Notes: generated from the letters alone by a model not told the origin. A stretch of DNA of 11,567 nt from Candidatus Nanoclepta minutus (GCA_003568775.1 MWMI01000008.1:1-11567), one strand, 5' to 3'. Positions 212 to 9,589 are shown, numbered from the stretch's first letter. Numbers and translations are program-made.

Positions 212-910
212 ATGGATGCCCTTCAACCACTTTGGGATCTTTTCTTACCAGTGATACCACAAAATTATAAAATAATTGCACAATCCTGGGGTCTTTATGG
301 ACCGGCAGGAGGAATTTTAGCATTTCTAGCAGCTGTAGCATTAATATTTGGATTATTCTGGTTAGGTATGTTACTAGCCTTTGGAAAAATTATAGAAGGA
401 AACCCATATGCACATAGAGCCTTGATATTAATAGCTGCTGGATTAGGTATAATAGGAGCTTGGTATGGTGCAGGTGTTATGTTCTATATACTATCAAACA
501 TAGCATATTTAATGGGATCCTTTGCTGCTATAATAGTATTTGGCTCAGTTATTAGAGCTTTGATCGCAGGATGGCATGGAGCTGGGGCAACAATGCAAGA
601 AGCCATAGCACTTGAGGAAGCAGAAAAAGCAAAAGTATTTGAATATAAAAAGACTACAATTATGGGGGCATATGAATTACTGAACGAGATAATATTAAAG
701 ATATACAATAATAATCCAAAAGCAGAAAATGCAGAAATAGCCGAAAGCGTAATCGACTTCTTAAAAAAAGAAAAAGCTTTAGCAGAAAAGTTGTTTGGTT
801 TCAAAAGAGGGTCTTTATATGATTATTATATAAAACTCTTTGGGAGCTATACTAAACTAAAAGATTATATAGAAAATAAAATTAAGGAATTCAGACAATA
901 CAAAACATAA
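212..910 (+). CDS. Hypothetical membrane protein: Gly/Ala-rich N-terminal transmembrane region plus Lys/Glu-rich helical C-terminal half
   Basis: 232-aa ORF with a promoter-like box upstream. The N-terminal ~125 aa contain three to four hydrophobic helices (e.g. GILAFLAAVALIFGLFWLGMLLAF, ALILIAAGLGIIGAWYGAGVMFYIL). The C-terminal ~100 aa are charged and helical. No family recognised. Confidence 0.7.
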   Translation: MDALQPLWDLFLPVIPQNYKIIAQSWGLYGPAGGILAFLAAVALIFGLFWLGMLLAFGKIIEGNPYAHRALILIAAGLGIIGAWYGAGVMFYILSNIAYLMGSFAAIIVFGSVIRALIAGWHGAGATMQEAIALEEAEKAKVFEYKKTTIMGAYELLNEIILKIYNNNPKAENAEIAESVIDFLKKEKALAEKLFGFKRGSLYDYYIKLFGSYTKLKDYIENKIKEFRQYKT

Positions 911-946: not shown

Positions 947-2092
947 CTAAATTTCTTCTACCTTCTTTTTTATAACCAAACTTTCTGCATAATCATCTGG
1001 ATCCATTGTTATGATATATCCCTTTGAAACCTCTTCCAACTTATGTCCTGCCCTCCCAAACCTCTGTACCGCTCTAATAACCTGTCTTGGTGACATATAC
1101 TGTATTACTGCATCTACATGACCTATATCAATTCCAAGCTCTAATGAAGATGTAGCAATTATTGCCTTTAACTTTCCTTCCTTAAACAACCTCTCATTCC
1201 TTTCCCTAACTTCCCTAGACAAACTACTGTGGTGTATTTCTATGGGATAATCCGGTAACCATTTCTTAAACCTTGAAACCAATAATTCTGCCATTTCCCT
1301 CGTATTTACAAATATTAAGACAGACCTATGCCTATCCAAGATCTCCTTTATCTTTCTTAAACTCCAAACTATTTTAGGACTCCATTCCAGCTTCCTACTT
1401 AATTCAAAGTCTTCTTCAGTAATCCTGGGATAGAATACCTCTATATCGTATCTCTTAACTCCATACCAATATGCAATATCAAAATCTCTATATCCAAAGA
1501 TAAACCTACCTGCTAGATCTAAATCACCAATCGTTGCAGATAATGCTATCCTTTGAAAATCTCCAGCAAAGTTAACTAACCTCTCTAATCCCAAAGATAA
1601 CTGGACACCTCTCTTATCATCCAATAACTCGTGTAACTCATCTACTATAACGAACTTTACATATCTTAAGTGATCCTTCAATTTTTTTCCTAAAAATAAT
1701 GCTTGTAAAGTTTCAGGGGTTGTTATTAGGAATTCTGGAGGTCTCTTAGACTGTTTTGTCCTCTCACTTTGGGTAGTATCTCCATGTCTTACTGCAATTG
1801 AAATATCTAAATTGTTACACCACCAGTATAATCTATCTAAAAGATCCCTATTTAAGGCCCTTAGTGGAGTTATATAGATAGCCAAAATCCCTTTCACCTC
1901 TTCCCTCTCTCTTATATCTAGGATTCTTGAAAAAACTGGAACTACTGCTGCTTCTGTTTTTCCAGCCCCCGTTGGTGCAACTATTAAGGTATTCTTACCA
2001 TAAAAAACTTTAGGAATAGCTAGTTCCTGTATTTTATTAAAGTTCCCAAACCTTCCCTTGAAAAGTTCTAAAACTTCCTTTCTTATATCCAT
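947..2092 (-). CDS. lhr: Lhr-type superfamily-2 DEAH/DExH helicase, RecA-core-only (N-terminal module of a split or truncated Lhr)
   Basis: SF2 motifs occur in order: I APTGAGKT, Ia YITPLRALNRD, II DELH, III SAT, VI QRFGRAGH. The start overlaps the upstream MPE-type phosphoesterase gene by 10 nt, a classical Lhr-MPE pairing. At 381 aa, the winged-helix and domain-4 half of Lhr-core is absent. Confidence 0.85.
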   Translation of the reverse strand: MDIRKEVLELFKGRFGNFNKIQELAIPKVFYGKNTLIVAPTGAGKTEAAVVPVFSRILDIREREEVKGILAIYITPLRALNRDLLDRLYWWCNNLDISIAVRHGDTTQSERTKQSKRPPEFLITTPETLQALFLGKKLKDHLRYVKFVIVDELHELLDDKRGVQLSLGLERLVNFAGDFQRIALSATIGDLDLAGRFIFGYRDFDIAYWYGVKRYDIEVFYPRITEEDFELSRKLEWSPKIVWSLRKIKEILDRHRSVLIFVNTREMAELLVSRFKKWLPDYPIEIHHSSLSREVRERNERLFKEGKLKAIIATSSLELGIDIGHVDAVIQYMSPRQVIRAVQRFGRAGHKLEEVSKGYIITMDPDDYAESLVIKKKVEEI

Positions 2093-2748
2093 ACTTCCTT
2101 CAATAAGACTCCTTCAAGCGTAAATACGTTGTATGCCTTTATCTTCTTTGCTATAGGACCATGGAAATTCCCTACTTCCCAATAACCGGCTAGATCAGAA
2201 AAGGCAGGGAGTATTATAACCTCCCTCTCATCAAAAGTTCCAGAAACAAAAACCTTCTCATAGAAGGATTCACCAATAATACTCCTTATATTAATAACAA
2301 AATGATGATGTCCTATAACGAAAACTTTTCCATCTAAAACATTCCTCTTATGACCATGAGAAAAAACAACTTTACCTATTTTAATTTCCTTCAGTATCTT
2401 TATATTATCCTTCTTCTCAACTATCTTCTCTAAGCCCCCATCATGGTTACCCTTCAGGATGTATATCCTTTCAAAATATTCCGATATTTTATCTAAAAAG
2501 TATGGTATTTCCCTCATCTCCATTAAACTAACCTTCGGCACATTATGCTTTAGATCTCCAACAATTATCAGATTACTAACCTTACTCTTGCTATATATAT
2601 CCTCTAACTTCTTTATCAAGTAATCGGTAACTGCTGGCAGGTTTATTCCTCCAGTAAACAACTCTCTCTCTATTCCAATATGTAAATCAGAGATTACTAG
2701 GTACTTATCCTTAAAGATTAATGCCTCCTTCCCGGTAAATTTAAACAT
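2083..2748 (-). CDS. Calcineurin-like metallophosphoesterase (MPE / SbcD-Mre11-related archaeal phosphoesterase)
   Basis: Motifs in canonical order: SDLHIG (D-x-H), VGDLKHN (GD), GNHD, SHGH, GHHH. The ATG shares one base with the upstream stop (TAATG), and the 3' end overlaps the helicase start. Confidence 0.85.
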   Translation of the reverse strand: MFKFTGKEALIFKDKYLVISDLHIGIERELFTGGINLPAVTDYLIKKLEDIYSKSKVSNLIIVGDLKHNVPKVSLMEMREIPYFLDKISEYFERIYILKGNHDGGLEKIVEKKDNIKILKEIKIGKVVFSHGHKRNVLDGKVFVIGHHHFVINIRSIIGESFYEKVFVSGTFDEREVIILPAFSDLAGYWEVGNFHGPIAKKIKAYNVFTLEGVLLKEVWI

Positions 2749-4481
2749 TATTTTGCTATTGAATATTCTATAAATACTTTATCTAATACTTTGATTACAT
2801 TTTTATCTAAATAATTCAATAACTTACTGAAATCTTTAAGTATCTCTTTTATATATTCCTTATTAAATTCTCCTATCTTATTTCCATCGTAATCATATAA
2901 TAAGACCTTATCCGAGATTACTATCAGCTTATCTGAGAATACTAATAAGTTTAAAACCTCCCCACCTTTCAATAATATCTTAAAACTATACAAACTTATT
3001 ATATCCTCAACTAAACCCTGTAAATAATCCCTAAAGGCCCTAATTAAGATATATATTTTCTCCTTAAATATATTATACTCTAAATCCTCTGTTTTTCCTT
3101 CTAAAAACTTTCTAATATACTGATTAACTTCTTCAAAGATATTCCCCAACAATGAAAACTTTTCCTGTATGATTTCGTTTATACTCTTCTTATAAATCTC
3201 TTCCAACCTTGATTTAAGGACGTTATATTCCTCAATATAATACATTATCTCTTCTTTCTCCTTTTCTCTATCTATTAGCTGCTTTAAAGCATTCATCCTA
3301 TTAATAAAGCTTTCGGCTTTGGAAATCCATTCGTTTAAGTCTTTATAATCAAAACCCTCTATTTCTCCATGCTCATGCATTTTTCTTAACTTCCATATAT
3401 CCTCCAAATCCTTTGCATAACTATCTTCCAATATCTTTTTCTCCTCAACAAATACCTTTCTTAAGGATTCTATCGTCTCCTTTGGATCCAACGGAGAGAA
3501 ACCATATCTAACCAAAACTGCTTGAGCAGCTGTTAACATAGATACAGCAACATCATTAACTAATAAAGAATTAATTGTATTCCTTATTCTGTCCTTCGAA
3601 TCTTTTAACATCATGTTAGCAACGTTCAGATGCTTTTCTGCAGCCTCTCTCGATGGCTTTAATATTCCCTTTAATAGTAACTGTTTCCAAGCTATAAATG
3701 TACCTCTATCGTAGAAGGCTATGCCATCTCTCAAGAAAGTATAAATAACTGGATTATATTCGGATAAAGCATACCAGAATTCAGTTAAAGTATAAACTTG
3801 AGGATGTATAACCTTCTTTGAATTCAAAAACATCTGAACTTTTAATGCTTCTGTAGTTACTACTTCATATAACTTAGCTTTTAGCTCTTCAAAAGTATGC
3901 ATCTTTACATCAGTATCATCTATTATAACATAAACGTCTACATCAGACTTATCTACATTCCTTCCCTTTACTTGAGATCCAGCTAATGCATATGCAACAA
4001 CATATTTAGAAAATATCTCTAAAAGGGAATTCTTATGTAATGTTACCAATTTAAATATTTCAAAGATACCTTTATCATACAGAATTTCTAGACTGGATAA
4101 GAAATCTAATAGATCAAATCTAGAATCCATAGAAATTTCCATTATATCGCTCATTAGTAATGGATGAATCCAAATCTTCAATCCTTTTTCTTTTATAAAC
4201 TTCAGCGATTCTTCTAAAAATTCTGCCTTAAGCTTTATTTTATCGTTTATAGTATTCAGATCATAATCAGAAAGGATAATTATAATATGTTCGTATTCCC
4301 TTATTTCCTTCTCATGCTTTTCCCTTATATTATCAACGTTTAGCTTATCAATAGAAGAATATCTCAAAAGATCTCCTAAGAACCTTAAGTTTTCCTCCTT
4401 TTTACCATCAGCTTTTCCTATTCCAATTATTCTTTCTTTATCTTTAGATTTAAGAACATAATCCACGAACTCCTGGCTCAT
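2748..4481 (-). CDS. Large multidomain protein: degenerate NTase-like repeat, intact minimal (MNT/pol-beta type) nucleotidyltransferase, HEPN-like helical region with Rx4H, coiled coil, and a beta-rich C-terminal domain
   Basis: G168-S-x10-D180-x-D182 (AGSQVKGRNVDKSDVDVYVIIDD) is the pol-beta/MNT signature. An upstream segment repeats the pattern (SDYDL...IWIHP...LYDKGIF versus SDVDV...VIHP...FYDRGTF). Downstream, LRKMHEHG fits Rx4H. 577-aa ORF. Confidence 0.7.
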   Translation of the reverse strand: MSQEFVDYVLKSKDKERIIGIGKADGKKEENLRFLGDLLRYSSIDKLNVDNIREKHEKEIREYEHIIIILSDYDLNTINDKIKLKAEFLEESLKFIKEKGLKIWIHPLLMSDIMEISMDSRFDLLDFLSSLEILYDKGIFEIFKLVTLHKNSLLEIFSKYVVAYALAGSQVKGRNVDKSDVDVYVIIDDTDVKMHTFEELKAKLYEVVTTEALKVQMFLNSKKVIHPQVYTLTEFWYALSEYNPVIYTFLRDGIAFYDRGTFIAWKQLLLKGILKPSREAAEKHLNVANMMLKDSKDRIRNTINSLLVNDVAVSMLTAAQAVLVRYGFSPLDPKETIESLRKVFVEEKKILEDSYAKDLEDIWKLRKMHEHGEIEGFDYKDLNEWISKAESFINRMNALKQLIDREKEKEEIMYYIEEYNVLKSRLEEIYKKSINEIIQEKFSLLGNIFEEVNQYIRKFLEGKTEDLEYNIFKEKIYILIRAFRDYLQGLVEDIISLYSFKILLKGGEVLNLLVFSDKLIVISDKVLLYDYDGNKIGEFNKEYIKEILKDFSKLLNYLDKNVIKVLDKVFIEYSIAK

Positions 4482-4503
4482 TAGTCTTTATTCTCTTACA
4501 TAT

Positions 4504-5013
4504 TTATATTTCTTTCCTCAACCATTTTAACATACTATTTATATCGATATCTGCTTTTTCTTTTTCTTCCTGTTGTTTAGTTTCTTCCTTTTTTTCTTCC
4601 TTAAAGCTTAAGTATTCTAAAATCTTGTTTCTCAATGCTTCTAATTCATTAAGTTCTACTTTTCTCCTTGGCAAGATAACCTTAATCCCATCTTCTTCAA
4701 ATCTAGGAACTACTTCTAAATATATATGCTTACTTTTCTCATATTCTCTAAAAGTATTTATGGATAATAGATATCCGACCGGCTTAAATATCAATTGAAG
4801 GACATTTGTCAATCTTTTCGCTAAAATAATCATCTTAACTAAAGTTTCATCATCTAATAACTCTATCCTCTCAACATGTCTCCTTGGGAATATTAAGATA
4901 TGGCCTGGGTTAGAAGGAAATATGTTTAAAACACAAACAATATCTTCATCCTCGTATATTTTAAAGGATGGTACTATATTCTCTGAAATCTTACAAAGAC
5001 TGCACTCGTCCAT
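4504..5013 (-). CDS. HIT-superfamily (Hint-like) protein with a degenerate histidine triad and an acidic/lysine-rich C-terminal tail
   Basis: N-terminal CSLC and VLNIFPSNPGHILIFPRRHVE match the HIT fold core. The HxHxHxx position reads H96-I-Y98-L-E100-V-V followed by PR. First gene of the minus-strand operon. Confidence 0.8.
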   Translation of the reverse strand: MDECSLCKISENIVPSFKIYEDEDIVCVLNIFPSNPGHILIFPRRHVERIELLDDETLVKMIILAKRLTNVLQLIFKPVGYLLSINTFREYEKSKHIYLEVVPRFEEDGIKVILPRRKVELNELEALRNKILEYLSFKEEKKEETKQQEEKEKADIDINSMLKWLRKEI

Positions 5014-5050
5014 AAACTTTTTATAAGGTTATCAGAGAAAATAAAGATTT
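5014..5050. promoter_or_regulatory. 37-bp divergent promoter spacer with two opposed TATA-like boxes
   Basis: tttttataa (5018-5026) is centred ~29 nt upstream of the ATG at 5051. On the other strand, tttatttt (complement of 5038-5045) is centred ~28 nt upstream of the ATG at 5013. There is no room for 5' UTRs or SD. Confidence 0.45.
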
Positions 5051-6314: not shown

Positions 6315-7803
<1,489 letters not shown>

Positions 7804-7812
7804 TAGTTAAAG

Positions 7813-7866: not shown

Positions 7867-9114
7867 ATGTTTGAAATAAAACAAAGGGATATTGCTGGAA
7901 GAATAGGAATATTAAACATAAAAGGGAAAAGATTGGAAACTCCAACAATTTTACCAGTAATTAATCCAAACAAGTTAACAATAGATCCAAAAGATATTAA
8001 GGATAGATATAGAATAAATGCAATTATTACAAATGCTTATATAATTTATTCTAAACCAGAAATCAGAGAAAGAATATTAGAAATTGGTATTCATAAATAT
8101 TTAGACTTCAATGGGATAATAGAAACTGATTCTGGATCCTACCAAATGCTACACTATAAAAAGGATTTAGACATAGATAACAAAACGATTGTAGAATTCC
8201 AGATAGAGATAGGGAGCGATATAATAAACGTCTTGGATATACCAACGGATATCGATAAAACATACGAAGAGGCAAAAGAAGAACTTAAAATTACCCTAGA
8301 AAGGATAAGAGAGAGTATAGAAATAAGGAATAGAATTTCTAAGGATACTTGGATAAACGGTGCAATTCAGGGAGGAACATTCATAGATTTGAGGAGAGAA
8401 TCAGCAATCGAAGTTAGTAAATTACCTGTAGACATCTACGCAATAGGTACTATTGTACCATACCTAATAAAGTATAGGTTCCTAGACCTCTTCAAGACAA
8501 TCATTGAGCCAAGAATATTACTTCCGTTAAATAAACCTGTACACCTCTTCGGTGTAGGGCATACGCTAATACTACCGCTTTCCGTATCTATAGGATCGGA
8601 TATATTTGATTCTGCATCCTACGTACTCTTTGCAGAAGATGATAGGATTATAACGAACTATGGAACCTTCAAATTGGATGAACTTGAAGATTTCTATATA
8701 GAAACTAAGAATAAATCCTATCACACATCAGAAATAAAAGAAATGGAAAAGAAGGAAAGAGTAAAAATTCTATCGGAGGCCAACCTTTATTATTTAGTTA
8801 AAGAAATATCTATCATAAAAGACGCTATAAAAAACCAATACTTAATGGATTTGGTATGCTACAAAGCCCATATGCATAGATCAGTCTATGAAGCCACCAG
8901 GTATATACTAGAAAACTATTATAATTGGTTAAAGTCATTGGATCCTATAAGGAAGAGGAGTGGAATAACCTATTATGGAGATTTACTTGAAATAAGAGTA
9001 GAAGTTAGGAGAGCACTAGAAAGGTTAAAGGAAAGGGTAGATATAAGGGATATGGAATACCTGTACGATTATGTATTTCCGTTTAATTCTCTAAAAAATG
9101 ATAGAAAAATATAG
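7867..9114 (+). CDS. tgtA: Archaeosine tRNA-guanine transglycosylase, catalytic TIM-barrel module only (no C2/PUA domains)
   Basis: N-terminus MFEIKQRDIAGRIGILNIKGKRLETPTILPVINPN, ETDSGSYQM (catalytic Asp region), PVHLFGVGH and DIFDSASYVLFAEDDR all align with ArcTGT as I recall it. At 415 aa it is much shorter than the ~580 aa of full-length ArcTGT. Confidence 0.85.
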   Translation: MFEIKQRDIAGRIGILNIKGKRLETPTILPVINPNKLTIDPKDIKDRYRINAIITNAYIIYSKPEIRERILEIGIHKYLDFNGIIETDSGSYQMLHYKKDLDIDNKTIVEFQIEIGSDIINVLDIPTDIDKTYEEAKEELKITLERIRESIEIRNRISKDTWINGAIQGGTFIDLRRESAIEVSKLPVDIYAIGTIVPYLIKYRFLDLFKTIIEPRILLPLNKPVHLFGVGHTLILPLSVSIGSDIFDSASYVLFAEDDRIITNYGTFKLDELEDFYIETKNKSYHTSEIKEMEKKERVKILSEANLYYLVKEISIIKDAIKNQYLMDLVCYKAHMHRSVYEATRYILENYYNWLKSLDPIRKRSGITYYGDLLEIRVEVRRALERLKERVDIRDMEYLYDYVFPFNSLKNDRKI

Positions 9115-9589
9115 AAAAAACATAAAAAGAAACATAAGAAAGACCAAGCTATTTAAAAAGGGAAATAAGATAAGAATAGCAACTTTGTTATCAAATACTA
9201 GAGACTTCTCCATAGATATAATAAAAAAAGTAAATGAAAAGCACAATCTAAATTTAAAAATAGAAACAATAGAATATAGAAACTTGGAGGAATTCTCATT
9301 TGATAATTCAGATATAATAATTGTTCCATTAGAAGGTGTCTTTCTTTCTTTCCTACTATATTCTTATACAAAAGAACCTATATTTTTGAAAATATTCAAA
9401 TCCATCGATACTAACATTACTTATAACGTATCAGAGCTTTACATATCTAAATACCTTAAGAAGAACCCATCAATGTTCTCTTTAAAGTATAGAGAAATCT
9501 TAGAATTCGTTTATAGGATCATGGAAAGAAACGAAAAGTATGTAAGCTCTCTTTCAAACTTTCTATCTTATTTCAGAAAATATTATTAA
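9098..9589 (+). CDS. Hypothetical protein, possibly a degenerate or truncated PP-loop ATPase-like relic
   Basis: 163-aa ORF overlapping the tgtA end by 17 nt. The N-terminus IKRNIRKTKLFKKGNKIRIATLLSNTRDFSIDIIKKV follows the TilS/TtcA/Ncs6/QueC lead-in pattern (..I.k..l...gdkv.va.SGGxDS..l..l), but SGGxDS is replaced by SNTRDFS. Assignment is pattern-level only. Confidence 0.55.
   Translation: MIEKYRKNIKRNIRKTKLFKKGNKIRIATLLSNTRDFSIDIIKKVNEKHNLNLKIETIEYRNLEEFSFDNSDIIIVPLEGVFLSFLLYSYTKEPIFLKIFKSIDTNITYNVSELYISKYLKKNPSMFSLKYREILEFVYRIMERNEKYVSSLSNFLSYFRKYY

Follow-up and report, generated by a model that had tools for sequence, protein, structure and literature searches.

Four adjacent genes of Candidatus Nanoclepta minutus: probably a composite of an Lhr/MPE repair pair and a DPANN nucleotidyltransferase/HEPN-like protein

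Layout of the four-gene row

Here we present an analysis of four adjacent minus-strand genes of Candidatus Nanoclepta minutus, which lie on a contig of 11,567 bp that was analysed in its entirety and is referred to below as the window; database proteins named “Candidatus Nanoclepta minutus” and “Nanoarchaeota archaeon NZ13-N” match its products at 100% identity. In transcription order they encode a HIT-like protein of 169 aa, a protein of 577 aa that combines nucleotidyltransferase (NTase) and HEPN-like domains, an MPE-type metallophosphoesterase of 221 aa and an Lhr-family helicase of 381 aa (Table 1). A preliminary description had read the row as a translationally coupled operon whose products form one nucleotidylation-controlled module. 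Its open reading frames (ORFs) and junctions were reproduced exactly from the ORF listing and by direct reading of the sequence: a 22-nt gap separates the HIT-like and 577-aa genes, the 577-aa and MPE genes overlap by 1 nt (TAATG), and the MPE and Lhr genes overlap by 10 nt. Coding sequence makes up 92% of the window. Close packing is no distinguishing mark of the cluster, since the remaining same-strand junctions of the window (-17, +23 and -4 nt) are equally tight.

Table 1. Features of the four-gene row and of its surroundings in the window
Feature	Coordinates	Strand	Basis or remark
HIT-like protein, 169 aa	4504..5013	-	Pfam HIT; alignment to 3IMI and 1Y23; alignment of 18 DPANN HIT proteins
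577-aa protein	2748..4481	-	ORF listing and direct reading
Domain 1, residues 1-140, degenerate NTase copy	4062..4481	-	hhalign against domain 2; AF2 pLDDT 87
Domain 2, residues 141-275, active-looking minimal NTase	3657..4061	-	Motifs, Pfam, Foldseek, family alignment
Probable HEPN domain, residues 281-396	3294..3641	-	Pfam HEPN profile, alignment, Foldseek
Long helical/coiled-coil region, residues 397-494	3000..3293	-	AF2 secondary structure
C-terminal beta-rich domain, residues 495-577	2751..2999	-	AF2 pLDDT 92; Foldseek against the PDB, best E = 1
MPE-type binuclear metallophosphoesterase, 221 aa	2083..2748	-	TIGR00024, TIGR04123, Pfam Metallophos, motifs
Lhr N-terminal half (RecA1 + RecA2), 381 aa	947..2092	-	PRK13767, longer homologues, 5V9X, published split
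37-bp divergent spacer	5014..5050	-	Between the HIT-like gene and the 312-aa membrane-protein gene; sequence reading
TATA-like box ATATAAAT	4502..4509	-	Spans the HIT stop codon, 28 nt before the start of the 577-aa ORF; may be an internal promoter
Multi-pass membrane protein	212..910	+	No Pfam match
Multi-pass membrane protein, 312 aa	5051..5989	+	No Pfam match
16S rRNA gene	6315..7810	+	
TGT-domain ORF, 415 aa	7867..9114	+	Pfam TGT, E 1.5e-61
ORF following the TGT-domain ORF	9098..9589		No Pfam match

The four proteins and their catalytic motifs

The two downstream genes encode a phosphoesterase and a helicase motor. The proposed MPE identity was borne out, as the protein scores 119.2 bits against TIGR00024 (SbcD_rel_arch; cutoff 115.2), matches the PdeM model TIGR04123 at E 1e-21 and has every metallophosphoesterase motif intact (D21xH23, G64D65, G100NHD103, H131/H133 and G146HHH149); a sequence search of solved structures with it gave no match. 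The helicase was assigned to the Lhr family by PRK13767 (E 2.4e-99) and TIGR04121 (E 1e-88), has as its best solved-structure match the Lhr-core of Mycobacterium smegmatis (5V9X, E 9e-51), and retains motifs I (APTGAGKT), II (DELH), III (SAT) and VI (QRFGRAGH). The preliminary description had named it an Lhr core; the Lhr-family motor is present, but the complete core is not. The ORF covers positions 20-413 of the 877 in PRK13767 and stops at the boundary between RecA2 and the winged-helix (WH) domain of longer homologues, with the WH domain and domain 4 (DEAD_assoc) absent from it, and the Nanopusillaceae orthologues all measure 374-388 aa. Podar et al. (2013) reported a “large helicase-related protein” to be split in N. 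equitans (NEQ003/409) and in Nst1 (172/239), with the other half unlinked in Nanoarchaeota (PMC3655853, Table 1); from this published split, together with the coverage of RecA1 and RecA2 only, it follows that the cluster encodes half a helicase. The gene pairing of Lhr with MPE, which the preliminary description calls frequent, is indeed documented, DPANN included (PMC8301817, PMC7437997), and the two genes are neighbours here as well. Additionally, Lhr homologues of 409-455 aa (e.g. P0139, P0143, P0154, P0179, P0219 and P0228) were seen on 61-252 kb contigs of non-nanoarchaeal archaea, and splitting or truncation of Lhr may extend to further lineages.

For the 577-aa protein, the AlphaFold2 (AF2) model, with a predicted local distance difference test score (pLDDT) of 87, comprises an alpha/beta domain (residues 1-136), an NTase domain (~140-260), a helical bundle (278-400), long helices reaching residue 498 and a beta-rich end. 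The earlier proposal of an internally duplicated NTase proved correct, since profile-profile alignment by hhalign joins residues 6-140 to residues 150-262 with a probability of 98% (E 2.9e-13); the NTase fold was also recovered by Foldseek from the AF2 model. Domain 1 has neither GS nor DxD, and domain 2 carries G168-S169-x10-D180-x-D182 plus IDDTD188-191. Across 20 diverse DPANN homologues G168, D180, D182, D188, D189 and D191 are invariant, and S169 varies in two (GT in P0089, GG in P0097). The Pfam Polbeta model gives 23.5 bits with the window protein, slightly under its cutoff of 26.9, and matches 18 of the 20 family members. The HEPN-like region, also proposed earlier, spans the full Pfam HEPN profile at a weak E of 0.01 in the window protein, and 7 of the 20 members match this profile, the best at E 1.6e-6. 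Its motif reads R366-K-M-H-E-H371 (RφxxxH), with R or H replaced in 7/20 homologues. In the RφxxxHxY motif the Tyr is the residue AMPylated by MntA (motif definition in PMC13000451); the corresponding position, two residues after the His, is E, K, L, I, A or T in 20/20 homologues and never Tyr.

Sequence searching of solved structures with the 577-aa protein gave no match. The best solved Foldseek matches were ANT(9), AadA, KNTase, MntA, Hailong HalB, LinB and the HEPN protein AF_0298 (E 1e-3 to 0.2). Profile searches also returned faint MTPAP-like matches for the NTase, and a role as a CCA-adding enzyme or poly(A) polymerase was considered. The C-terminal domain, a small beta-meander with two helices whose fold is conserved across the family, found no significant Foldseek match in the PDB when modelled alone and thus does not point to a substrate.

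Homologues of the 577-aa protein are numerous, with at least 111 of ~570-660 aa in protein databases, from Nanopusillaceae, Woesearchaeota, Pacearchaeota and Aenigmarchaeota, and at least 585 matches in species-representative genomes; the JGI label for them is “UPF0332 family / predicted nucleotidyltransferase”. No relatives of the NTase were found in 2.9 million viral contigs, and PADLOC returned generic NTase, HIT and helicase similarities only, including weak PDC-S09 NTase matches, with no meaningful defence-system match. A defence function was rejected on the PADLOC result. Makarova, Wolf and Koonin (2019) described a DPANN-specific cluster, cls.004259 (NEQ050), present in 36 of 67 DPANN genomes, in which an MNT is fused to HEPN in a housekeeping context, and deemed a toxin-antitoxin (TA) origin most probable for it (PMC6393860). 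That judgement, the domain order of MNT followed by HEPN, the combination of GS-x10-DxD with RφxxxH and the weak PDC-S09 matches would all agree with the 577-aa protein being a fused type VII TA of the FhepTA-like MNT-HEPN kind, a selfish or defence element beside repair genes. We regard this as very improbable. The wide spread over DPANN genomes, the conserved length, the housekeeping neighbours and the lack of viral copies depart from the patchy, mobile-element-linked distribution expected of type VII TA systems; furthermore, there is no Tyr acceptor, the HEPN R and H are not kept throughout the family, and the dead NTase copy, the coiled coil and the C-terminal domain are all foreign to TA modules.

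The HIT-like protein matches PF01230 with 58.9 bits (cutoff 21.5) and has 41 sequence matches among solved structures, with Hint-type proteins at E ~1e-13. It has an N-terminal CxxC, a K/E-rich linker and a C-terminal WLRKEI tail, and a charged linker with a C-terminal W[LF]xK[RE]I end recurs in all Nanopusillaceae copies. The fold claimed for it therefore stands, but the activity of a nucleotidyl-adduct enzyme does not. In Hint and Fhit the middle His of the triad is the nucleophile. Where solved proteins read HFHLHLIPR or HYHMHIIPR, the window protein reads HIYLEVVPR, the middle His being replaced by Tyr and the third by Glu. None of 18 aligned DPANN HIT-like proteins retains the middle His: the 11 orthologues from Nanopusillaceae have Y, S, I, V, F or T there, and it is also lacking in the 7 proteins of woesearchaeal-type loci. 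Loss of the nucleophile makes a classical AMP-adduct hydrolase or de-AMPylase very unlikely, and we predict from the sequences that the protein is inactive as a HIT hydrolase. The Tyr of HIYLE was considered as a substitute nucleophile and rejected because of the variation at this position among the orthologues.

Other DPANN HIT-like ORFs (L011, L030, L044, L055, L067) have HFMLH, HAVLH, HFCFH or HFAIN at the triad, and the HIT-like proteins of these organisms are often tandem pairs ending in a conserved [DE][YW][LF]xKQ[LM]xR[LV]P tail. The nucleophile-less proteins may constitute a DPANN-wide pseudo-HIT family, which would be a second, small puzzle. We also noted that the HIT gene of locus L081 (4367-4855) is called from TTG; an in-frame ATG 15 nt upstream yields the MDECSLC start seen in the window, so the public annotation probably begins 5 codons too late.

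Gene neighbourhood and candidate promoters

The comparison of gene order covered 80 genome loci, each holding a homologue of the 577-aa protein with ±10 kb flanks, and 3 further loci of closer relatives; the loci were searched with the window proteins and neighbours were identified by Pfam. The four-gene order is limited to Nanopusillaceae, where it stands within a larger syntenic block. The HIT-like gene is directly upstream of the 577-aa gene in 11 loci, the MPE gene is downstream of it in 9 and the Lhr N-half in 8, all of them from Nanopusillaceae. Outside this family, in Woesearchaeota, Pacearchaeota and other DPANN, neither MPE nor Lhr was found within 10 kb of the 577-aa gene (0/73 loci), and lack of conserved linkage is an outcome that the preliminary description had itself named as refuting its module. 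Six of these loci have a HIT-like gene 4.6-9 kb away, never adjacent, and it is absent from the other 67. If NEQ050 is orthologous, the distance of its locus tag from NEQ003 and NEQ409 would add another example of missing linkage.

Other genes recur beside the NTase gene more widely. Downstream of it, on the same strand, stand rpl35ae in 13 loci (7 outside and 6 within Nanopusillaceae) and rpl10e in 8. The commonest same-strand downstream neighbour outside Nanopusillaceae (L014, L016, L019 and others, 23 loci) encodes a CBS-pair protein of ~183 aa with a C-terminal CxxC...CxxC zinc ribbon, which could be a functional partner of the NTase. Also, 18 woesearchaeal loci (L009, L013 and 16 more) contain tandem paralogues of ~180 aa without a Pfam match, 37 copies in all, sitting 1-5 genes downstream of the NTase gene.

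Within Nanopusillaceae, two arrangements were found. The tight arrangement of the window is shared by the Nanoclepta clade (identity of 56-77% in the 577-aa protein). The NTase and MPE genes of the Nanopusillus/Nanobsidianus clade (45-49% identity) are separated by rpl35ae, and lhr follows a spacer of 170-230 bp. Adjacency of the NTase gene and rpl35ae is found in distant orders too, so the simplest history is a departure of rpl35ae from this place in the Nanoclepta clade, by which the TAATG junction was formed. The synteny of the family extends from TGT, the 16S rRNA gene and the divergent membrane gene through the cluster to Rrp41, Rrp4 and CBS, and with the whole region syntenic, conservation of the four-gene order amounts to no more than background synteny.

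These results bear directly on the proposal of one nucleotidylation-controlled end-processing, repair or defence module, in which AMP or another nucleoside monophosphate (NMP) would be written by the NTase on HEPN, on partners or on the ends of nucleic acids and erased by the HIT protein, with Lhr-MPE as the executor. Overlapping genes on one strand, a gene order kept across Nanopusillaceae, the intact NTase catalytic motif and the RφxxxH of the window protein speak for it, as does the precedent of NTase-to-HEPN AMPylation in MntA/HepT and FhepTA (PMC13000451). We nevertheless consider it unlikely that a writer and an eraser were grafted onto Lhr-MPE in this way. The linkage is confined to one family and is interrupted there by rpl35ae, the HIT-like orthologues are all without the nucleophilic His, the acceptor Tyr is absent from every aligned homologue, and the cluster encodes only half of the helicase. 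Moreover, the NTase family shows vertical inheritance and housekeeping contexts, with no viral copies and only generic NTase matches to defence models.

Two A/T boxes stand in the spacer upstream of the HIT-like gene, CTTTATTTT at -33..-25 and CTTATAAAAAG at -15..-5 from its ATG. This spacer is likely to be the promoter region of a leaderless or short-leader transcript. Promoter-like A/T boxes had been said to occur only there, a statement not borne out, given ATATAAAT upstream of the 577-aa ORF and TTTATAAAA, found at -34..-27 in the 170-bp spacer that precedes the Lhr gene of Nanopusillus acidilobi. The strict pattern WTATAAAW has 6 matches in total on the coding strand of the 4.1-kb region, ATATAAAT among them. 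A TATA-like core occupies the same position in the window, L081, L083 and L004, 22-31 nt from the start of the 577-aa ORF, reading ATATAAAT except in L083, which has TATATAAA. The ATATAAAT box is built from the final HIT codons and the stop codon (AAA GAA ATA TAA); judged by its position it is a possible internal promoter, from which a leaderless mRNA would start, and it may put a constraint on the C-terminus of the HIT-like protein. The overlaps fit a single transcript or translational coupling, and the four genes are probably co-transcribed. TATA-like boxes also precede internal genes, so a single promoter cannot be established by sequence alone.

The same observations must be weighed for a narrower alternative, in which the 577-aa NTase has the HIT-like protein as its partner in a two-protein unit specific to Nanopusillaceae and independent of MPE-Lhr, the pseudo-HIT being a regulatory subunit that binds nucleotides or adducts. 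The spacer between the two genes is 22-43 nt in 9 of the 11 Nanopusillaceae loci, over a range of ~45-77% identity; the apparent gaps of ~150-160 nt in the other two, L001 and L005, are due to incomplete tblastn extension. Pseudoenzymes are often regulators, and the conserved W[LF]xK[RE]I end hints at a docking motif. Set against this, other DPANN never have the two genes adjacent, being either 4.6-9 kb apart or without the HIT gene altogether, the adjacency is conserved no better than the surrounding synteny, and the TATA-like box conserved between them suggests that the NTase gene can also be transcribed alone. We consider such a unit doubtful.

Around the cluster, the two multi-pass membrane-protein genes listed in Table 1 form its borders, and the 312-aa gene is divergent from the HIT-like gene, an adjacency kept in all Nanopusillaceae loci. 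No tRNA genes were found in a search across the window. The TGT-domain ORF corresponds to the N-terminal piece of archaeosine tRNA-guanine transglycosylase, an enzyme that is split in Nanoarchaeota (Podar 2013, PMC3655853), and overlaps the next ORF by 17 nt.

Interpretation and comparison with known systems

We favour the reading that the four-gene row is a composite that arose by genome compaction in Nanopusillaceae and that it comprises two units and no single functional module, with a probability of roughly 65%. The first unit would be the MPE and the N-terminal half of Lhr, the known archaeal Lhr/MPE repair pair. Judging from characterised homologues, the 381-aa motor half would assemble with the separately encoded WH/domain-4 half into a 3'-to-5' translocase, which would work with MPE as an Mn-dependent endonuclease of single-stranded DNA. 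The second unit would be the 577-aa protein, a pseudo-dimeric NTase-HEPN enzyme that appears DPANN-wide, always chromosomal and in housekeeping contexts. Its architecture and neighbours suggest, as its most likely activity, NMP transfer onto RNA or protein of the translation or RNA-processing sphere, with the HEPN domain as a nucleotide- or substrate-binding partner, as in KNTase/ANT enzymes. The pseudo-HIT may at most bind nucleotides or partners via its conserved C-terminal tail. The direct NTase-MPE junction would have arisen on the departure of rpl35ae, which is widespread downstream of the NTase gene and probably had that place ancestrally.

Several points weigh against this composite reading. 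The HIT-NTase adjacency holds in 11/11 of the Nanopusillaceae loci examined, across ~45-77% identity. Also, the TAATG junction and the 10-nt overlap persist in relatives despite 56-74% identity in the 577-aa protein, and such retention of stop/start overlaps makes it likely that the Nanoclepta clade co-expresses the four genes, which could reflect function. The C-terminal half of Lhr was not found in the 83 loci or the window with the C-terminal parts of longer homologues as queries, so the split is taken from the published Nst1 and N. equitans data. Finally, the 577-aa family is very probably cls.004259/NEQ050, an identification made by description and not by sequence.

A combined history can also be proposed, in which the 577-aa protein is a domesticated TA derivative that became a core, DPANN-specific enzyme and nucleotidylates RNA or else a protein of translation or repair. 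The Nanopusillaceae member would have taken on the dead HIT as a subunit for binding adducts or nucleotides, and would be co-expressed with the split Lhr and MPE because it marks or unmarks their nucleic-acid substrates. We give this only a slim chance. Both the HIT-NTase partnership in Nanopusillaceae and the domesticated-TA origin are minority readings of low probability.

The row has little importance as a four-gene module: it contains a repair pair, a split helicase and very probably the DPANN MNT-HEPN family of the literature, in a lineage-specific juxtaposition. The 577-aa family itself is of wider interest. It is found in hundreds of DPANN genomes of several orders, with an intact NTase centre, a dead duplicate, a probable HEPN domain mostly with the RNase-type motif, and ribosomal-protein neighbours. 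Identifying its substrate would close a functional gap of a kind of which few are DPANN-wide.

The proteins of the row resemble several known systems. In the Lhr-core/MPE pair (M. smegmatis Lhr-core, Pseudomonas putida MPE, archaeal aLhr2 with its TIGR00024 phosphoesterase), MPE is likewise directly upstream of an Lhr-family DExH gene and overlaps it, whereas the window helicase ends after RecA2 and has 381 aa instead of ~850. The split helicase of Nanoarchaeota (NEQ003/NEQ409; Nst1 172/239) comes from the same family of organisms, and the Nst1 locus (L002) has an orthologous N-half of ~380 aa at the same position. The HIT-like protein is similar to Hint-branch HIT proteins (Bacillus subtilis Hit 1Y23, and 3IMI) in fold, in the N-terminal CxxC and in FPxxxGHxLxxP, over ~110 residues (E 1e-13); it differs in having HIYLEVV in place of HxHxHxx and a charged C-terminal extension with a conserved end motif.

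For the 577-aa protein, the DPANN MNT-HEPN cluster cls.004259 shares the fusion of NTase and HEPN, the DPANN-wide spread and housekeeping neighbours such as ribosomal protein genes, and the text of PMC6393860 describing it does not mention the NTase duplication, the coiled coil or the C-terminal domain. The aminoglycoside-type enzymes ANT(4'), ANT(9), AadA and LinB are the best Foldseek matches, aligning an NTase and a helical HEPN-like domain over ~275-308 columns, although weakly (E 1e-3 to 1e-1, 10-15% identity); a HEPN-type C-terminal domain of aminoglycoside nucleotidyltransferases is listed in PMC3710099. These enzymes are homodimers of 250 aa, whereas the window protein has 577 aa, carries its dead NTase copy in cis together with extra domains, and has no antibiotic link. 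The type VII TA systems HepT/MntA and FhepTA have in common with it the GS-x10-DxD NTase and, probably, a HEPN domain with RφxxxH, and MntA structures (6M6U, 7BXO, 7AE9) were among the Foldseek matches; unlike them, the 577-aa family is without the Tyr of RφxxxHxY, is non-mobile with housekeeping-like conservation, and has additional domains.

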